Assembly: GCA_943350445.1 (NCBI GenBank)
Contig: CALRAE010000001.1
Coordinates: 29,561-93,560 of the forward strand
DNA from: Candidatus Nomurabacteria bacterium
GTDB lineage: Bacteria; Patescibacteriota; Minisyncoccia; Phycocordibacterales; UBA9973
Direction: 5' to 3'
DNA length: 64,000 bases
Numbering within the stretch: position 1 is the first letter of the stretch; each line of letters opens with the position of its first letter. Below are positions 5,830 to 46,217 of this stretch, piece by piece. The notes below the pieces were generated by a model, which saw only the letters and a list, made by a program, of their open reading frames with translations, was not told the origin of the DNA and ran no database searches. Made by a program: the position numbers and the translations under genes.

Positions 5830-5865
5830 TTTACACCGTTGACTTTTATTTTTGTTAAGTATATG
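5830..5865 (+). promoter_or_regulatory. promoter for the toxin-antitoxin module (TTGACT-17-TATGAT)
   Basis: Hexamers with 17-bp spacer immediately downstream of the terminator. Confidence 0.35.
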
Positions 5866-5912
5866 ATATTATAATATTAGATTATCATACAAATTAACAT
5901 AAGAATATAAAT

Positions 5913-6122
5913 ATGACCACATTATCAATACCCGTGTCAGGGGATTTAGAAAAATTTATAGAAGGGATGGTTAAAGTTGGGAAAGGTTCAAACAAAGCTG
6001 ACGTCGTTCGACGTGCCTTACGTGAGTATCAAGAGAATGAAATAGTTAAAACTATTTTACAGGCTGAAAATGAGCCTACAATGAAAGGGGACTTACGCGA
6101 TTTAATGAAAAAATTCAAATAG
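5913..6122 (+). CDS. type II antitoxin, ribbon-helix-helix (ParD/CopG-like)
   Basis: 69 aa; N-terminal beta-strand then KADVVRRALREY helix typical of RHH; 4-nt gap to the downstream toxin. Confidence 0.6.
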   Translation: MTTLSIPVSGDLEKFIEGMVKVGKGSNKADVVRRALREYQENEIVKTILQAENEPTMKGDLRDLMKKFK

Positions 6123-18988: not shown

Positions 18989-19540
18989 ATGGCAAAACAT
19001 TTAACTGTAAAAGAAAAAGAAATAGCGGCTTTTGAAAAAATGAAAGATGTTTTTCATTATAAAAACATCATGGCTGCAGCAAAGATGGAAAAGGTTGTGA
19101 TCAACGTCGGTACTGGAACGGCTATTAAAAAAGATAAGAACAAAAATGACGCTATCTCTGATCGTTTAGCCAAAATAACTGGCCAGAAGACCGCTACAAG
19201 AGGTGCAAAGCAATCAATCGCATCTTTTAAAACTAGAAAGGGGGATCCTATCGGCATCGTGGTAACACTACGTGGCAAGAGGATGTATGCTTTCTTGGAA
19301 AAGCTGATCAACGTGGCTCTGCCTCGTACCAAAGACTTTCGTGGGCTCACTCCAAAGTCAGTAGACAATATTGGTAACCTTACCATTGGCATAAAAGAAC
19401 ACACTATTTTCCCAGAAACAGCTGATGAAGACATTCGCGACGTTTTTGGTCTTTCTATCACCCTTGTATCTAAAGCAAAATATAAAAAGGAAGGTAAAGC
19501 CTTTTTTGAACTCCTCGGCGTTCCTTTTAAGAAGGACTAA
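18989..19540 (+). CDS. rplE: 50S ribosomal protein L5
   Basis: 183 aa; conserved L5 core. Confidence 0.95.
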   Translation: MAKHLTVKEKEIAAFEKMKDVFHYKNIMAAAKMEKVVINVGTGTAIKKDKNKNDAISDRLAKITGQKTATRGAKQSIASFKTRKGDPIGIVVTLRGKRMYAFLEKLINVALPRTKDFRGLTPKSVDNIGNLTIGIKEHTIFPETADEDIRDVFGLSITLVSKAKYKKEGKAFFELLGVPFKKD

Positions 19541-19617
19541 ACGAAGAAATAGAAATTGTGAGGCAAGACCTCACAACTAATTTTGGTATAACTGCATGAT
19601 TGTTATATAATGTTTAT

Positions 19618-20034
19618 ATGCCTGAGGATATGAAAATCCCCAATAGTTCTGAGATTGATCAAGCCTTAAGAGAGTTTGAGGCACAGTCACATCCTCTGGG
19701 TCAGACGACACAAAAAGCTCCTGAAGCTCCAAGGGTATCTGATACTTTTAAGACCGAAACAACAGGAATAAGTTTTGAAACTGACAGTCTTAAATCGATA
19801 AATAATGCCAACGAAATTGTTGTGCCCAGAATGGTAAGAATCGTGATGAAACTCTCTGGAGGAGCTATAAAAGAGCAAAAACAGGCAGAATATGTGCTTC
19901 TCGGCTTTGCTTTAGTGATATTCCTTATTTCGCTGTATTTGTTTTTTGGCGGAGGTGAACCTACTCAAAAAATTTCCAACGAAGAATCTGTACAAAACTA
20001 TAATAATTATTATGAAAATCTACATAAAAAATAA
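19618..20034 (+). CDS. hypothetical C-terminally membrane-anchored protein, paralog 1
   Basis: ~138 aa; shares conserved block MV(R/K)(I/L)VMKLSGGAIKEQ(K/R)QAEYVLLGF and C-terminal TM helix with 21221-21616; stop overlaps the pilin start. Confidence 0.45.
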   Translation: MPEDMKIPNSSEIDQALREFEAQSHPLGQTTQKAPEAPRVSDTFKTETTGISFETDSLKSINNANEIVVPRMVRIVMKLSGGAIKEQKQAEYVLLGFALVIFLISLYLFFGGGEPTQKISNEESVQNYNNYYENLHKK

Positions 20035-20548
20035 AAGAGGTTTCACTTTGATTGAACTTCTGGTGGTAGTTGCCATCATTGGTCTTTTGTCTTCTGTTAT
20101 ACTAGCTTCTTTAAATAGTGCTAGGAGTAAGGCAAGAGATGCAGTAAGATTGTCTGATATAAAACAAATTTCTAATGCATTGGAATTATATTATAGCAAT
20201 AATGGTGTATACCCTTCAGGCCAATTTTTAAGTATTAAAAATACTTCTGATCCTAATAGTGTTTGGCAATGTTGTGGTGGGAGTGCATTCATAGCAGCAT
20301 TAGCACCTTATTTACCAAAATTACCAATTGATCCAAAAAATAATGATGTAACTTGTTATGCAAATGGCGCTCATTTTTACACTTATCAATCATTTAACGC
20401 AGGGAAAAATTATGGAATATATGCTTCACTTGAAAATCCAAAAGCGGGTGCAGCAGACCCAGCTAATTACCCCTGTTGTGCGACGTCTGCTCCCGGCAAC
20501 TGTATGTATAAAGCTACTAATGGAGGGGTGGGAATTGTTCCAAATTAA
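20012..20548 (+). CDS. type IV pilin-like protein (prepilin)
   Basis: MKIYIKNKRGFTLIELLVVVAIIGLL is a class III signal peptide (G-FTLIE); C-terminal Cys pair. Confidence 0.75.
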   Translation: MKIYIKNKRGFTLIELLVVVAIIGLLSSVILASLNSARSKARDAVRLSDIKQISNALELYYSNNGVYPSGQFLSIKNTSDPNSVWQCCGGSAFIAALAPYLPKLPIDPKNNDVTCYANGAHFYTYQSFNAGKNYGIYASLENPKAGAADPANYPCCATSAPGNCMYKATNGGVGIVPN

Positions 20549-20608
20549 TTTGACTAATTACCTCCAAAAGCTCGCAAAGCTCGCAAGAAGCTCGCAAGGA
20601 CTGTCCTT

Positions 20609-21136
20609 TTGCACTCCGTCAGCCAAACGGCAGACGGAGGCTACGTCCTCGGTGGACTCTCTTGGTCCGGAGTTTCAACCAACAAGTCAGACCCAAGCTA
20701 CGGCTTCGGGGATTACTTGGTGGTCAAGCTTGATGCCTCCGGCAACAAGCAGTGGGACAAGACTTTCGGCGGGTCTGACACCGACGAACTCACCTCCCTT
20801 CAGCAGACCGCTGACGGAGGATTCATTCTCGGTGGATGGTCATGGTCGGGTGTCTCCGGCAACAAGACGACCGCCAACATTGGGGTCTCAAGTTTCTGGG
20901 TCATCAAACTCGACCCTCCACCATCCCTCAGTCTTTCCGCAGTCGGGAAGACAAATGGGTTCAATGCATTCAGGTTGAGTGGGCCTGCCGGGTCTTACTC
21001 GATCCGGGCATCGACGAACTTCGTTAACTGGGTGCCTCTTACGAGCATCACCCTTGACGGCACGAACGCTACTGTCTTCGTGGACACGCAGTCCACGAAC
21101 TACCCCTCTCGGTATTACCGGGCGGTGGGGCAGTAA
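20609..21136 (+). pseudogene. high-GC fragment encoding a beta-propeller (SBBP-like) repeat protein remnant
   Basis: Repeats TADGG(Y/F)(V/I)LGG.SWSGVS.NK; GC ~55-58% versus ~38% flanks; no credible N-terminus or signal peptide; alternative-frame ORF spans the same DNA. Confidence 0.5.
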
Positions 21137-21220
21137 GCCTTCATCTATCACATCGAACGGGCTCTCCTTTTTAGGGGGGCCCTGTTTTGTTTTTTATAAG
21201 AATGAGTATATAATTTATTT

Positions 21221-21616
21221 ATGGATGAACAATTAAACCTTCAGGGAAATGCAGAGATAGATGCGGCCTTGAAAGAATTTGAAGCCAAGTCTAGTCCTCA
21301 AGCTGTGACTAATAATCCTATAGCACCTGGGATTTCTAGTGTTCCCAAAATGCCAACATCCGGTATTAGTTTTGATACCGATAATTATAGATCTATAAAT
21401 AAAGAAGAGGTTCCTTTACCAAAGATGGTTAAGCTTGTTATGAAGCTTTCTGGTGGAGCGATAAAAGAACAACGACAAGCCGAATATGTCCTGTTGGGGT
21501 TTGTTGCTATAATAATTAGTATTTCCGTCTATTTATTTTTTGGTGCAAATGGATCTCGTCAATCATCTTTTTCTCCGTCTACTGAGCAAATGATGAAAGC
21601 GGGACAGAATAGATAA
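21221..21616 (+). CDS. hypothetical C-terminally membrane-anchored protein, paralog 2
   Basis: 131 aa; paralog of 19618-20034 with the same conserved block and architecture. Confidence 0.45.
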   Translation: MDEQLNLQGNAEIDAALKEFEAKSSPQAVTNNPIAPGISSVPKMPTSGISFDTDNYRSINKEEVPLPKMVKLVMKLSGGAIKEQRQAEYVLLGFVAIIISISVYLFFGANGSRQSSFSPSTEQMMKAGQNR

Positions 21617-21621
21617 AAAAT

Positions 21622-22119
21622 ATGAAATTTTTAAACAAAAATAAAGGTTTTACTTTAATAGAGCTTCTCGTGGTGGTGGCTATCATTGGGCTTCTGGCTT
21701 CTGTTGTTTTGGCAAGTTTGAGTACTGCGAGGGGTAGAGGAAGGGATGCAAAGAGACTTCAAGATATGAATCAGGTTCGTACTGCCCTGGAACTTTACAA
21801 CAGTACAAATAATGCATATCCTAGTACTGGCGGTGCTTGGTGGGGTGTTTGCCCAGCATTTCAAAGCAAAGGAACATCTGGTTTTGGTGGGTACATTCCT
21901 GATCTAGCTCCAACATATATTCCTATTTTACCAACTGAACCAAAACCCACAGCTAATAATACTTGCTATGTTTACCGTTCTGATGGTAGGGATTATATTT
22001 TCTTAGTCTATTTAACTGTAGAGGGCAACATACCGAACTCGTTAAAACGTCCCGGTATTTGGTCAGCCGAGAAGGATTATGCTATTTATACTTCAGCGTC
22101 AGTAGTAGCAGGTTGGTAG
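21622..22119 (+). CDS. type IV pilin-like protein (prepilin)
   Basis: MKFLNKNKGFTLIELLVVVAIIGLLASVVL class III signal peptide. Confidence 0.75.
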   Translation: MKFLNKNKGFTLIELLVVVAIIGLLASVVLASLSTARGRGRDAKRLQDMNQVRTALELYNSTNNAYPSTGGAWWGVCPAFQSKGTSGFGGYIPDLAPTYIPILPTEPKPTANNTCYVYRSDGRDYIFLVYLTVEGNIPNSLKRPGIWSAEKDYAIYTSASVVAGW

Positions 22120-22276
22120 GATAAAAAGGGTTTGACTAATAACATCTAATTTGCTAGTATTTAATCCAAGGGAAATAGGTCTTAGTTAATCCACTTTTCT
22201 CCTTTGATTCTCTATATTTTAGAGGTTTAAAGAAAAAAAGTGAGATATTACAGGGTCTACCCTCAATTATTTATTT

Positions 22277-22462
22277 ATGGCAAAAACATCAGTTATCGCA
22301 AGATCACTTAAAAAGCCCAAGTTTAGCACTCGACAAAAAAATCGATGTTTTCGATGTGGCCGAGGCAATGCTTTCATGCGAGACTTCGGTATTTGCCGTA
22401 TCTGTTTTAGAGAATTAGCAAACGAAGGAATGCTTCCAGGAGTCCGTAAATCAAGCTGGTAG
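22277..22462 (+). CDS. rpsZ: 30S ribosomal protein S14, zinc-binding type Z
   Basis: 61 aa; [22 protein letters not shown] contains the Cys4 motif. Confidence 0.85.
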
Positions 22463-22486
22463 TTCGACAAGCTCACTATAAATAAA
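22459..22486 (+). repeat. 26-nt exact repeat TAGTTCGACAAGCTCACTATAAATAA (copy 2, after the rpsZ stop)
   Basis: Identical to 16243-16270. Confidence 0.7.
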
Positions 22487-22493
22487 AAAAATT

Positions 22494-22880
22494 ATGGATT
22501 CAATTTCAAACATGTTAATAGTAATGAAGAATGGTAGTCTTGCAGGCAAGGAGTCTGTGTCTGTTCCATATTCTAAAATGAGGAATGCCATTCTCGAATG
22601 TTTAAAGAAAGAAGGGTATGTGGCTGATATTGCAAAGAAGGTTAAAAAGGATGTGCCAGTACTCGAGGTTGGATTGATCTACACAGAAGATAAGCCAAAA
22701 ATTACTGAAGTAGAGAGAATTTCTAAACAATCAAGACGCGTTTATTTTGGAATGAAAGATATTCATACAGTCAGAAGTGGTTCCGGGTTGCTTGTGCTTT
22801 CAACGCCGAAAGGGATTTTATCAGGAAAAGCCGCTCGAGTAGAGCATGTCGGTGGTGAGGCTTTGTTTAGGATTTGGTAG
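22494..22880 (+). CDS. rpsH: 30S ribosomal protein S8
   Basis: 128 aa; conserved S8 core. Confidence 0.9.
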   Translation: MDSISNMLIVMKNGSLAGKESVSVPYSKMRNAILECLKKEGYVADIAKKVKKDVPVLEVGLIYTEDKPKITEVERISKQSRRVYFGMKDIHTVRSGSGLLVLSTPKGILSGKAARVEHVGGEALFRIW

Positions 22881-35592: not shown

Positions 35593-36029
35593 TAGGTTTT
35601 TTCCGTTAAGTTTTTTTGACCTAATCAGTTCAGTTGTATAATTTCCTGTTCTGACTTGAGTTGATTAAAGGTAATTTTCTCAATATTGTTTTCGTTACCT
35701 TCTTCCAATTCTAAGGCAAGTTCGACTCGTAAGTCCCACTTGCCTTTGCGATGCACTGTGACCTCTATTGTGATTACATTTTCCACAACTAGCCTTTCTC
35801 TTTTGTTTTCGAACAGCCAACACTTGTTATCTATTATATAACTTTAAGGCAAATTGTTAATTTCCCTTGGATTTAATACTCTTATTTTTTGTGGAACTGA
35901 CGAGAATTGAACTCGTGTGCAGAAGGCTTTTGCATTGAAGTCTACATATATAGCGCGCTTTTTTGTTTAGATTAAAAAATTCTTAAACGCGCCAAATATT
36001 TTTAAATCGAGTTCCTTTGTTTTGCACTA

Positions 36030-36347
36030 TTGGCGGAACGGTCAATATGCTATCCCGATAATATTATGCCTCTACTGATATATCGGAAGTCTATAAGAGA
36101 GACACGAGCTTACGCTAAAGCGGAAACTCGAGCAAAAGCGAAGTCATTCATACCGAAGTATGGAGAGACAGCCGCTTTTACTTTGGAAGCTAATTTTGCA
36201 ATTAAGCTATTGAACGAAGTTTTACGAGATTACGTCCATTCTCGATATGCATCAAATACATACGGCCTACTGTCTATGCCTAGCAGTCCCATGTTATTAG
36301 AAAATACGGAATATAAATTTTTCCGGTACGAATTTTTTGAAGCTTAA
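36030..36347 (+). CDS. hypothetical protein
   Basis: 105 aa; no recognisable domain; stop codon lies inside repeat copy B. Confidence 0.3.
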   Translation: MAERSICYPDNIMPLLIYRKSIRETRAYAKAETRAKAKSFIPKYGETAAFTLEANFAIKLLNEVLRDYVHSRYASNTYGLLSMPSSPMLLENTEYKFFRYEFFEA

Positions 36348-39475: not shown

Positions 39476-40150
39476 ATGGCAAGAAAATTAGATAAACAAA
39501 AGGCTCTAGCTATGCGTCAAAAGGGGATGAGTTATAGCCAGATTAAAGATCATATTGGTGTAAGTAAGAGCACCTTGAGTGGGTGGCTTAAAGATTTTCC
39601 TCTTAGTGAAAAAAGAATTAGAGAGTTGAGGGACAATAGCCCAATTCGTATTGAACGCTACAGGAATACAATGCGAGCTAAAAAAGAAGCCCGCCTAAAG
39701 ATGGTTTATGAAAAAGTGTCGAAAGACATAGGTGTTTTCTCAAAACGAGAAATTTTCTTATTGGGCATGTTCTTGTACTGGGGAGAAGGCACTAAAGCTA
39801 AAAATACTTCAGTTGCTCTCACAAATACAAATCCCGCAATGGTTAAGTTCTTTATCAATTGGCTTGATTCGTTTAATGTGCAAAGGAAAAAATTAAAAGT
39901 TAAATTGTATTTATATTCCGATATGAATATTAATAAATCTATTGCTTTTTGGTCAAAAGAGCTTAGAATACCAGTAAGCCAATTTACGAAGCCATACATT
40001 AAAAAGACTAATTTGGCATCGATAACTTATAAAAATGGCTTTGGTAAGGGGACTTGTTGTGTAATGTTTGATAATCGAGATCTTTTGGAATATATAATAA
40101 TGGGTTTGAAATATATTTCTGAAGTTAGTAATAAAAATATCCACCCTTAG
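39476..40150 (+). CDS. HTH-containing protein with LAGLIDADG-like motif (possible homing-endonuclease-like)
   Basis: N-terminal HTH MSYSQIKDHIGVSKSTLSGWL; later FLLGMFLYWGEGTK resembles a single LAGLIDADG motif; last 10 nt overlap tRNA-Ile. Confidence 0.35.
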   Translation: MARKLDKQKALAMRQKGMSYSQIKDHIGVSKSTLSGWLKDFPLSEKRIRELRDNSPIRIERYRNTMRAKKEARLKMVYEKVSKDIGVFSKREIFLLGMFLYWGEGTKAKNTSVALTNTNPAMVKFFINWLDSFNVQRKKLKVKLYLYSDMNINKSIAFWSKELRIPVSQFTKPYIKKTNLASITYKNGFGKGTCCVMFDNRDLLEYIIMGLKYISEVSNKNIHP

Positions 40151-40213
40151 CTCAGTTGGTAGAGCGAGCGCCTTATACGCGCCAGGTCCCTGGTTCGAGT
40201 CCAGGAGGGTGGA
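40141..40213 (+). tRNA. tRNA-Ile, apparent anticodon UAU
   Basis: Manual fold: 7-bp acceptor (C1-G72), D-arm GCTC/AGTTGGTA/GAGC, anticodon stem with one A.C mismatch, loop CTTATAC, T-arm CCTGG/TTCGAGT/CCAGG, discriminator A; CCA not encoded. Confidence 0.65.
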
Positions 40214-40283
40214 CATTAACGAGTTTTAAAAGGTTTTTAAAGAACCCTTGTAATTTATTTAGATTATAAGATATAATATAGTC

Positions 40284-45942: not shown

Positions 45943-46030
45943 TGGCGGAGCCGGTGAGATTCGAACTCACGGTCCAATAAAGGACGGCGGTTTAGTAAAC
46001 CGCTGATTTAAACCACTCATCCACGGCTCC
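45943..46030 (-). tRNA. type II (long variable arm) tRNA, Ser-like identity, apparent anticodon ACU
   Basis: Manual fold: acceptor GGAGCCG/CGGCTCC, G73, encoded CCA, perfect anticodon stem GCGGT/ACCGC, loop TTACTAA, variable hairpin GTCC-TTTATT-GGAC, T-arm GTGAG/TTCGAAT/CTCAC. Confidence 0.55.
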
Positions 46031-46125: not shown

Positions 46126-46217
46126 GGAGCCGTGTCAGAGTGGTCTAACGTACCTCTTTGCTAAAGAGGCAGGGGCTTCAAAACCCCTCGGCGGTTCGAA
46201 TCCGCCCGGCTCCGCCA
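46126..46217 (+). tRNA. tRNA-Ser (anticodon GCU)
   Basis: Acceptor GGAGCCG/CGGCTCC, G73, CCA; anticodon stem CCTCT/AGAGG, loop TTGCTAA; long variable arm GGGG-CTTCAAAA-CCCC; T-arm GGCGG/TTCGAAT/CCGCC. Confidence 0.8.

Follow-up and report, generated by a model that had tools for sequence, protein, structure and literature searches.

Why does a patch of about 650 GC-rich bases lie in the ribosomal-protein operon of a low-GC, small-genome bacterium, where did it come from, and is it still a gene? We address this question for a 64,000-nucleotide stretch of a Candidatus Nomurabacteria contig (CALRAE010000001.1; hereafter the window), in which the patch, or island (20568–21195, 54–57% GC), carries part of a beta-propeller gene. 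Our preferred reading, which we hold with moderate confidence, is that 20568–21195 is the 5′-truncated relic—the 3′ third—of a gene horizontally acquired from a GC-rich donor, and that its terminator now ends the transcript of the pilin module upstream. The donor was most likely a PVC (Planctomycetes–Verrucomicrobia–Chlamydiae)/Verrucomicrobiota-like organism. The foreign composition, the truncation, the positions of the junctions, the presence in two diverged genomes and the absence from relatives with a single pilin module were all observed directly.

A compositional island with one reading frame

The window as a whole belongs to a low-GC genome (mean GC 0.384, standard deviation 0.048 in 300-nucleotide (nt) windows). 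Along 200-nt windows, GC climbs from 0.29–0.39 (20000–20400) to 0.54–0.575 (20600–21199) and then returns to 0.355. A first-pass annotation of this DNA had described a rise from ~38% to ~55–58%; recomputation reproduced it, and the composition is not uniform. With a peak of 0.573, the island is both the longest run at or above 0.50 and the largest excursion in the 64 kb (300-nt windows). Three other GC peaks, considered as further islands, were rejected; they coincide with the core genes for FtsH and RecG and with a site at ~27.7 kb.

As that annotation had also proposed, one coherent repeat-bearing frame runs through the island. It spans 192 stop-free codons (20558–21136) and contains the repeat TADGGYVLGG..SWSGVS.NK..VVKLDASGNKQWDKTFGGSD twice, at 60 residues each and 180 nt apart. 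GC at third codon positions (GC3) is 0.695 in this frame versus 0.20–0.36 in six neighbouring host genes, and 0.59–0.72 in the homologues L005, L017, L082 and L083 (L numbers denote loci, P numbers proteins or reading frames). The codon usage is thus alien to the host, and the composition foreign. The elements of the locus are as follows.

19618–20548, forward strand: pilin module 1, with the membrane protein TM1 (19618–20034) overlapping a pilin (20012–20548) that has N_methyl and T2SSG/GspG matches
20549–20567, forward strand: stump of an S14 promoter, −35 box TTGACT at 20550–20555; host homology ends at 20567
20568–20597, forward strand: junction filler of three tandem AAGCTCGCA(A) copies, 9 and 11 nt apart
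about 20606–20776 and 20777–20917, forward strand: two beta-propeller blades, the last two of a seven-bladed propeller
20918–21136, forward strand: C-terminal beta-sandwich (..GPAGSYSIRASTNFVNW..SRYYRAVGQ) and TAA stop
21137–21158, forward strand: 3′ untranslated region (UTR) travelling with the gene (GCCTTCATCTATCACATC...), conserved 3′ of the stop in L096, L082 and L083
21159–21182 (hairpin) and 21183–21195 (T-run), forward strand: intrinsic terminator from a terminator scan, −21.5 kcal/mol, z −4.5
21209–21214, forward strand: TATAAT box 6 nt before the TM2 ATG, putative promoter of a leaderless module-2 transcript
21221–22119, forward strand: pilin module 2, with TM2 (21221–21616) and a pilin (21622–22119)
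22132–22276, forward strand: intact S14 promoter (TTGACT-17-TAGTAT at 22132–22160, from a promoter scan) and structured leader, the ancestral sequence that the island interrupts after pilin 1

The frame encodes the end of a beta-propeller protein

The AlphaFold (AF2) model of the open reading frame (ORF) has a predicted local distance difference test (pLDDT) score of 95.5 and shows eight strands, which make up two blades, followed by a beta-sandwich. Its top Foldseek match was CylK (E 1e-4, probability 1.0). A phmmer search against the PDB likewise returned CylK, at E 0.003 for the window ORF and at E 3e-26 for the full-length homologue L005; the CylK propeller was the only solved relative found. 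The blades are four-stranded and match this solved propeller in both sequence and structure, that is, they are of the CylK type; with two blades only, a complete seven-blade ring is lacking. The blade region is 55–63% identical to multi-repeat proteins, mostly from Bacteroidota, and the blade-repeat family comprises 50,507 cluster representatives at E≤0.001. Because the matched stretches in these relatives typically number 7, 14 or 21, the relatives appear to be seven-bladed propellers.

The last 72 residues form a domain that is seen at the extreme C-terminus of otherwise dissimilar proteins (222 matches). One of these tail-domain proteins, labelled Verrucomicrobiota, occurs on 71 contigs. 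The domain aligns end to end with P0006, P0013, L005 and L017, and it has no Pfam family. For the ORF and its longer relatives P0006, P0012, P0013, L005 and L017, Pfam gave no match at E≤1, SBBP included, and the NCBIfam SBBP lipoprotein model scored 13.3 bits against the ORF (E 0.024; cut-off 400). The earlier label 'SBBP-like' is thus a fair description of the motif, which does resemble SBBP, and not of a demonstrated membership in that family. An exact look-up of the 175-amino-acid (aa) product that would start at a TTG found no such protein on record.

The beginning of the gene is missing. Homology to the relatives begins mid-blade, at ~20600–20606, and extends to the very last residue. 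Intact blades-plus-tail homologues measure 513 aa (L005) and 577 aa (L017) and possess signal peptides and 7–8 repeats; the window stub has neither a signal peptide nor an ATG. Its sole in-frame start candidate, TTG at 20609, is preceded by GC-rich sequence. When we surveyed the 30 nt upstream of 18 host genes between 16676 and 24750, all 18 turned out to begin with ATG after an A/T-rich 'AAATAT/ATTAT' context, with no Shine-Dalgarno sequence. Gene callers left the ORF uncalled in both public assemblies. The stub is thus truncated relative to its intact homologues and devoid of start signals, in line with the earlier statements that it has no plausible N-terminus and that it is a gene remnant—more precisely, a 5′-truncated one without a host-type start.

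The island lies in a broken S14 promoter and has its own predicted terminator

Relatives with one module have TTGACT-17-TAGTAT immediately 3′ of the pilin stop, then a leader of ~115 nt and the S14 gene, and so does the window after pilin 2. After pilin 1, TTTGACTAAT..CTCCAA is kept, and the −10 box and the leader are gone. This stump, TTTGACTAATTACCTCCAA, is 84% identical to 22131–22149 of the intact promoter after pilin 2, and TTGACTAA likewise stands directly 3′ of the pilin in L092, L094 and L096. Since host homology ends at 20567 and the −10 box and leader are absent, the island lies within a disrupted copy of this promoter, with the left breakpoint inside the promoter spacer. The triple tandem repeat noted earlier at this upstream junction was found at 20568–20597: exact AAGCTCGCAA copies begin at 20568, 20577 and 20588 (Tandem Repeats Finder: period 9–11, 3 copies). 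Neither the host promoter nor the propeller gene shows homology to it, and the (AAGCTCGCA)x3 patch may be a repair scar.

At the right-hand end, the GC hairpin that had been read as a terminator has the features of a Rho-independent one—a stable GC-rich stem (21159–21182), a U-run and conservation in orthologues—and termination is predicted there. Equivalent hairpins exist in L096, where wobble-compatible changes preserve it, and in L083. Because the 3′UTR (..ATCTATCACA..) and the hairpin are shared with L096, and in diverged form with the distant relatives L082 and L083, the terminator arrived with the gene. No other terminator-like element lies between pilin 1 and the promoter of module 2. 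Downstream of it, the TATAAT box ahead of TM2 has the same layout (TATAAT, 6 nt, ATG) as that at TM1 (19606–19611) and that in L096, which suggests leaderless mRNAs. The imported terminator would now end the module-1 transcript just before this leaderless module-2 promoter.

A diverged copy in a second genome

L096, a 1431-base contig from a separate metagenome (Joint Genome Institute (JGI) 3300025536, Ga0207952_1017754), has a diverged copy of the right junction. It begins within the tail domain and continues through the 3′UTR, the hairpin, TATATAATTTATTTATG, a TM2-type protein, a pilin and the S14 promoter and leader to S14. Sequence identity of L096 to the window, by segment:

island coding part: 77% (nt), 73% (aa)
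3′UTR, terminator and promoter: 82% (nt)
TM protein: 64% (aa, global alignment)
S14: 88% (aa)

Synonymous divergence (dS) between the two island copies is 0.66, with a nonsynonymous divergence (dN) of 0.17 and a dN/dS ratio (omega) of 0.26 over 71 codons; dS for the S14 fragment is 0.74. With the island in step with S14, the insertion is old and predates the split between the window and L096 lineages. At the same locus the island is absent in L092, L094, L095 and L098. By S14, L092 is nearer to the window (dS 0.55) than L096 is, and yet it has no island, so either the island was lost in the L092 line or a block of island plus module 2 moved laterally among Patescibacteria; S14 is too short to choose between the two.

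A probable GC-rich donor outside the host lineage

Relatives in compositionally uniform contexts all fall outside the host lineage: those of the blades are in Bacteroidota, and those of blades plus tail on high-GC soil or PVC-type contigs. The blades themselves occur in Bacteroidota and in some Verrucomicrobiota metagenome-assembled genomes (MAGs). A genome scan returned Bacteroidota-type blade relatives of up to 63% identity and two full-architecture matches. L005 (labelled Limnocylindria) and L017 (labelled Bifidobacteriaceae) are short, unreliably binned contigs. A metagenome scan for the tail domain gave only distant relatives, with 26–35% identity or short partial matches, and the tail-domain contigs from it are uniformly 48–64% GC. 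The Verrucomicrobiota MAG loci L039 and L045 were rejected as full-architecture relatives: blades are present, and the C-termini differ. Codon usage and the relatives in other lineages together bear out the earlier proposal of a horizontal origin from a higher-GC donor.

As to the route, no integrase or transposase stands beside the island, whose neighbours are ribosomal proteins and the pilin modules, and no direct repeat brackets it. The nearest tRNAs are more than 15 kb away, and neither phage (protein) nor plasmid (DNA) collections contained a match. The island thus lacks the hallmarks of a mobile genomic island (integrative element). Bacteria of the Candidate Phyla Radiation (CPR) are thought to import host DNA via type IV pili and ComEC (PMC8080830); taken together with the missing integrase, tRNA, flanking repeat and phage or plasmid match, this makes uptake of foreign DNA followed by illegitimate recombination the likely route of entry.

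We propose that the intact gene specified a secreted protein made up of a seven-bladed beta-propeller and a small beta-sandwich at its C-terminus. Still present are two blades and the tail domain, together with the stop codon, the native 3′UTR and the Rho-independent terminator. This piece lies at a rearrangement joint in the spc operon, where the ancestral order would have been L5, TM–pilin module, S14 promoter, S14, and the derived order L5, module 1, broken S14 promoter, filler repeat, stub, terminator, module 2, intact S14 promoter, S14.

Relic or working gene?

Several observations weigh against a simple relic. All 192 codons of the frame are open, and neither the window copy nor the L096 copy contains a stop or frameshift. 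Omega between them is low (0.26, see above): differences at codon positions 1, 2 and 3 number 12, 11 and 25, and 24 of the 48 changes are synonymous and 24 nonsynonymous, as compared with a neutral expectation of 27–37% synonymous across transition and GC-to-AT biases (p 0.0004–0.05). The neutral evolution expected of a gene remnant, with omega about 1 and with stops or frameshifts, was therefore not what we found. Nor is the tail domain of the window any more distant from outgroups than its L096 counterpart, and a long-dead stub should not show such conservation. Furthermore, the L096 copy covers 71 codons only, beginning within the tail domain. As for the donor, the search called for by the first-pass annotation did find homologues; the best full-architecture relatives, P0006 and P0013, are only 51–53% identical, and no close donor was found.

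The pattern of substitutions points to protein-level constraint for much of the period since the split, a signal that, at 71 codons, is suggestive rather than decisive. An intact frame and a low omega imply that truncation was recent relative to acquisition, or that the stub is somehow still translated. The simplest reconciliation of the coding-like changes with the missing 5′ two-thirds and start is that an intact gene was acquired, remained under selection for a while and lost its 5′ part later, in the window lineage, probably during a rearrangement of the module region; the stub would then no longer be translated in this genome.

It is possible, if unlikely, that the stub is instead still a working gene. 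Translation would begin at TTG 20609, or ribosomes would re-initiate after pilin 1, and the resulting protein of ~175 aa, with two blades and the tail domain, would be maintained by selection, perhaps for a role in binding or mimicry. The intact frame, the low omega with its third-position excess, the lack of extra divergence from outgroups and the confident predicted fold would all be accounted for, an AAGGA lies 8 nt before the TTG, and a precedent exists in P0221, an ATG-started 123-aa ORF with the same end domain in a 31% GC genome. However, the genome makes no use of Shine-Dalgarno sequences and the TTG lacks a host-like context; two of seven blades cannot close a propeller; a signal peptide is missing, whereas the full-length relatives are secreted; the ORF is uncalled in either assembly; and the omega test covers 71 codons. 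We therefore retain the truncated relic as the better account.

Far less credible is the proposal of the first-pass annotation that the insertion is very recent and private to this genome, its high GC reflecting too little time for amelioration. A GC3 of 0.70, as high as in the putative donors, and the absence of the island from L092, the closest relative by S14, would fit. Against this, L096 shares the island, the 3′UTR, the terminator and the TM2 junction, and the dS values given above imply that the copies parted long ago. A compositional island thus need not be young: here, a GC3 of about 0.7 has been kept across a dS of about 0.7.

We give scarcely more than passing credence to the idea that read-through joins pilin 1 and the stub into one protein, with a propeller/sandwich tip on the pilin C-terminus. 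The two do share a frame and are separated solely by TAA-TTT-GAC-TAA, but the chance of a shared frame is 1 in 3, there is no sign of TAA recoding (other window genes end in TAA), and the post-stop TTTGACTAAT is the conserved −35 region of the S14 promoter in relatives, so the stop predates the island. With two consecutive TAA stops within conserved promoter sequence, we rejected the fusion.

An assembly chimera or contaminant join of Patescibacteria and GC-rich genomes, suggested by the abrupt switch in composition at both edges and by the related contig L082, which itself joins two gene fragments, can be dismissed, since both flanks continue the same operon, two assemblers agree—a 94-kb MEGAHIT contig (L001; ENA ERZ27280297) and a 15.6-kb Logan contig (L002; ERR3719144) are each 100% identical to the window across both junctions—and the orthologous right junction of L096, from an independent JGI sample, is common to two clearly different organisms and hence biological.

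The host locus and its pilin modules

The window contains an S10–spc row of ribosomal-protein genes (S3, L16, L29, S17, L14, L24, L5 ... S14, S8, L6, L18, S5, L15-like, SecY). Between L5 (18989–19540) and S14 (22277–22462) lie two paralogous modules, each pairing a small single-pass membrane protein (TM) with a downstream type IV pilin-like protein that has an N_methyl motif; the island was correctly placed between them in the earlier description. Named homologues of the TM protein come from Patescibacteria (Paceibacteria, Nomurabacteria, Berkelbacteria and Minisyncoccia), which identifies the host as a CPR bacterium. In total, the TM protein has 144 homologues and is without a Pfam family.

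L092 (5001–5863), L094 (5001–5877), L095 (3449–4325) and L098 (570–1084) have a single TM–pilin module adjoining L5 in the same place, without the island; TM1 shares 57% identity with its L092 counterpart. The first three run on into S14/S8, and L098 stops within the pilin gene. The pair of TM and pilin-like genes embedded in the spc operon between L5 and S14 is thus present in one copy in the relatives and in two in the window. A literature search found no paper on pilin genes inside CPR ribosomal operons. We also looked for further island-bearing loci via TM-protein homologues, and the other TM2-type homologues had no usable contig. In L097, the module lies beside SmpB, and on inspection only, an uncalled gap there resembles a transfer-messenger RNA (tmRNA) gene and not the island.

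The S14 leader is 91% identical (nt) between the window and L096. When we aligned four leader loci (window 22132–22276; L096 1163–1308; L092 about 5865–6006; L094 about 5890–6033), RNAalifold predicted a long hairpin of 33 pairs, 13 of them with compensatory changes. Rfam gave no match at E≤1 over 19400–22500, and the element may be an uncatalogued ribosomal-protein leader.

Directly 3′ of L5, another hairpin, TTGTGAGG-CAAGA-CCTCACAA (19556–19576; −13 kcal/mol, z −3.2), just precedes the module-1 promoter TTGGTA-17-TATAAT (19583–19611), an arrangement that mirrors the terminator-then-promoter order upstream of module 2. Elsewhere in the window, ARAGORN predicted a tRNA-Ser with the unusual anticodon ACT (45943–46030, reverse strand) next to tRNA-Ser(GCT) (46126–46217, forward strand), as well as tRNA-Ile(TAT) (40141–40214) and a tmRNA (35891–36290).

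Recurrence of the tail domain in low-GC genomes

Two further loci place the tail domain in low-GC DNA. In L083, a 55% GC blades-plus-tail ORF (P0013), with the 3′UTR and hairpin conserved, abuts 33% GC DNA; on its 5′ side, this ORF is followed only as far as the end of the contig. Comparison of L083 1–800 with 800–1222 located the GC step directly after the hairpin, and the start of nusA comes next (NusA_N, E 2e-16). P0221 (L099 1220–1591; also L100, L101 and L102) comes from aquifer metagenomes, where it lies on contigs of 31% GC and recurs without change in at least four samples; its tail is 64% identical to that of the window. Its GC3 of 0.38, against 0.19–0.27 in its neighbours, reflects a partly ameliorated composition. 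P0221 also looks 5′-truncated relative to P0235.

In L082 (976 bases), the propeller ORF P0006 (135–932) starts mid-blade beside an antisense fragment of a pyridoxal phosphate (PLP)-dependent decarboxylase (1–134). The decarboxylase piece is internal to its gene (Orn_Arg_deC_N positions 116–157, E 3e-4), and the contig is either a real mosaic of fragments or a chimera. P0232 was rejected as a CPR case, since it is one piece of a gene that frameshifts have broken up, in a genome of 57% GC.

There are thus three apparently independent low-GC cases: the window and L096 (ribosomal operon), L083 (nusA) and P0221. It is doubtful that Patescibacteria repeatedly keep, for a function, 3′-terminal pieces of GC-rich (PVC-type) secreted-protein genes that end in the 'ASTNLVxW...RFYRAV' domain, and the recurrence could be a mere reflection of how common the domain is in donor genomes. 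Should selection be involved, the epibiont would be using the tail domain as a functional module, perhaps to bind a host surface or sorting system or to mimic one, and the domain would give a clue to which lineage hosts these uncultured bacteria. If the recurrence goes beyond chance, such fragments could trace the hosts of groundwater Patescibacteria; otherwise, the island is an ordinary relic of horizontal transfer. In either case, the locus offers a doubly verified instance of cross-phylum DNA within a CPR ribosomal-protein operon, directly between two pilin modules.

Comparison with known systems

CylK (PDB 7RON, 7FH6) is a cyanobacterial Friedel-Crafts alkylating enzyme. The stub resembles it in its blade type, with four strands per blade, and in the blade motif D-x-W-hydrophobic-K-hydrophobic-D..GN..W...FG common to both. 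It differs from CylK in having two of seven blades, no N-terminal Ca-binding domain and another C-terminal domain; nothing in the stub suggests catalysis, and identity in the structural alignment is ~16%. With SBBP proteins (Pfam PF06739; NCBIfam LipL53-type lipoprotein NF047494), the island shares a similar repeat length and motif pattern, but neither the ORF nor six longer relatives match the Pfam family at E≤1.

The closest blades, at 55–63% identity, are those of Bacteroidota multi-blade proteins that have C-terminal sorting domains of the type IX secretion system (T9SS; e.g. P0021, Hymenobacter) and likewise combine a propeller with a small beta domain at the extreme C-terminus. Their tail, however, is Por_Secre_tail (PF18962), whereas that of the window is the unrelated 'ASTNLVxW...RFYRAV' domain.

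Finally, the island is a further example of a known phenomenon, the horizontally acquired gene relic. Like other acquired fragments and pseudogenes, it has atypical GC and codon use, is truncated, is patchily distributed and has its relatives in other phyla. Unlike typical cases, it has no integrase, tRNA or flanking repeat and sits in a ribosomal-protein operon, and an orthologue with coding-like substitutions has been retained at a dS of about 0.7. What sets this relic apart is its site between duplicated pilin modules of a ribosomal operon, its conserved orthologue and a terminator that has probably been co-opted by the host.

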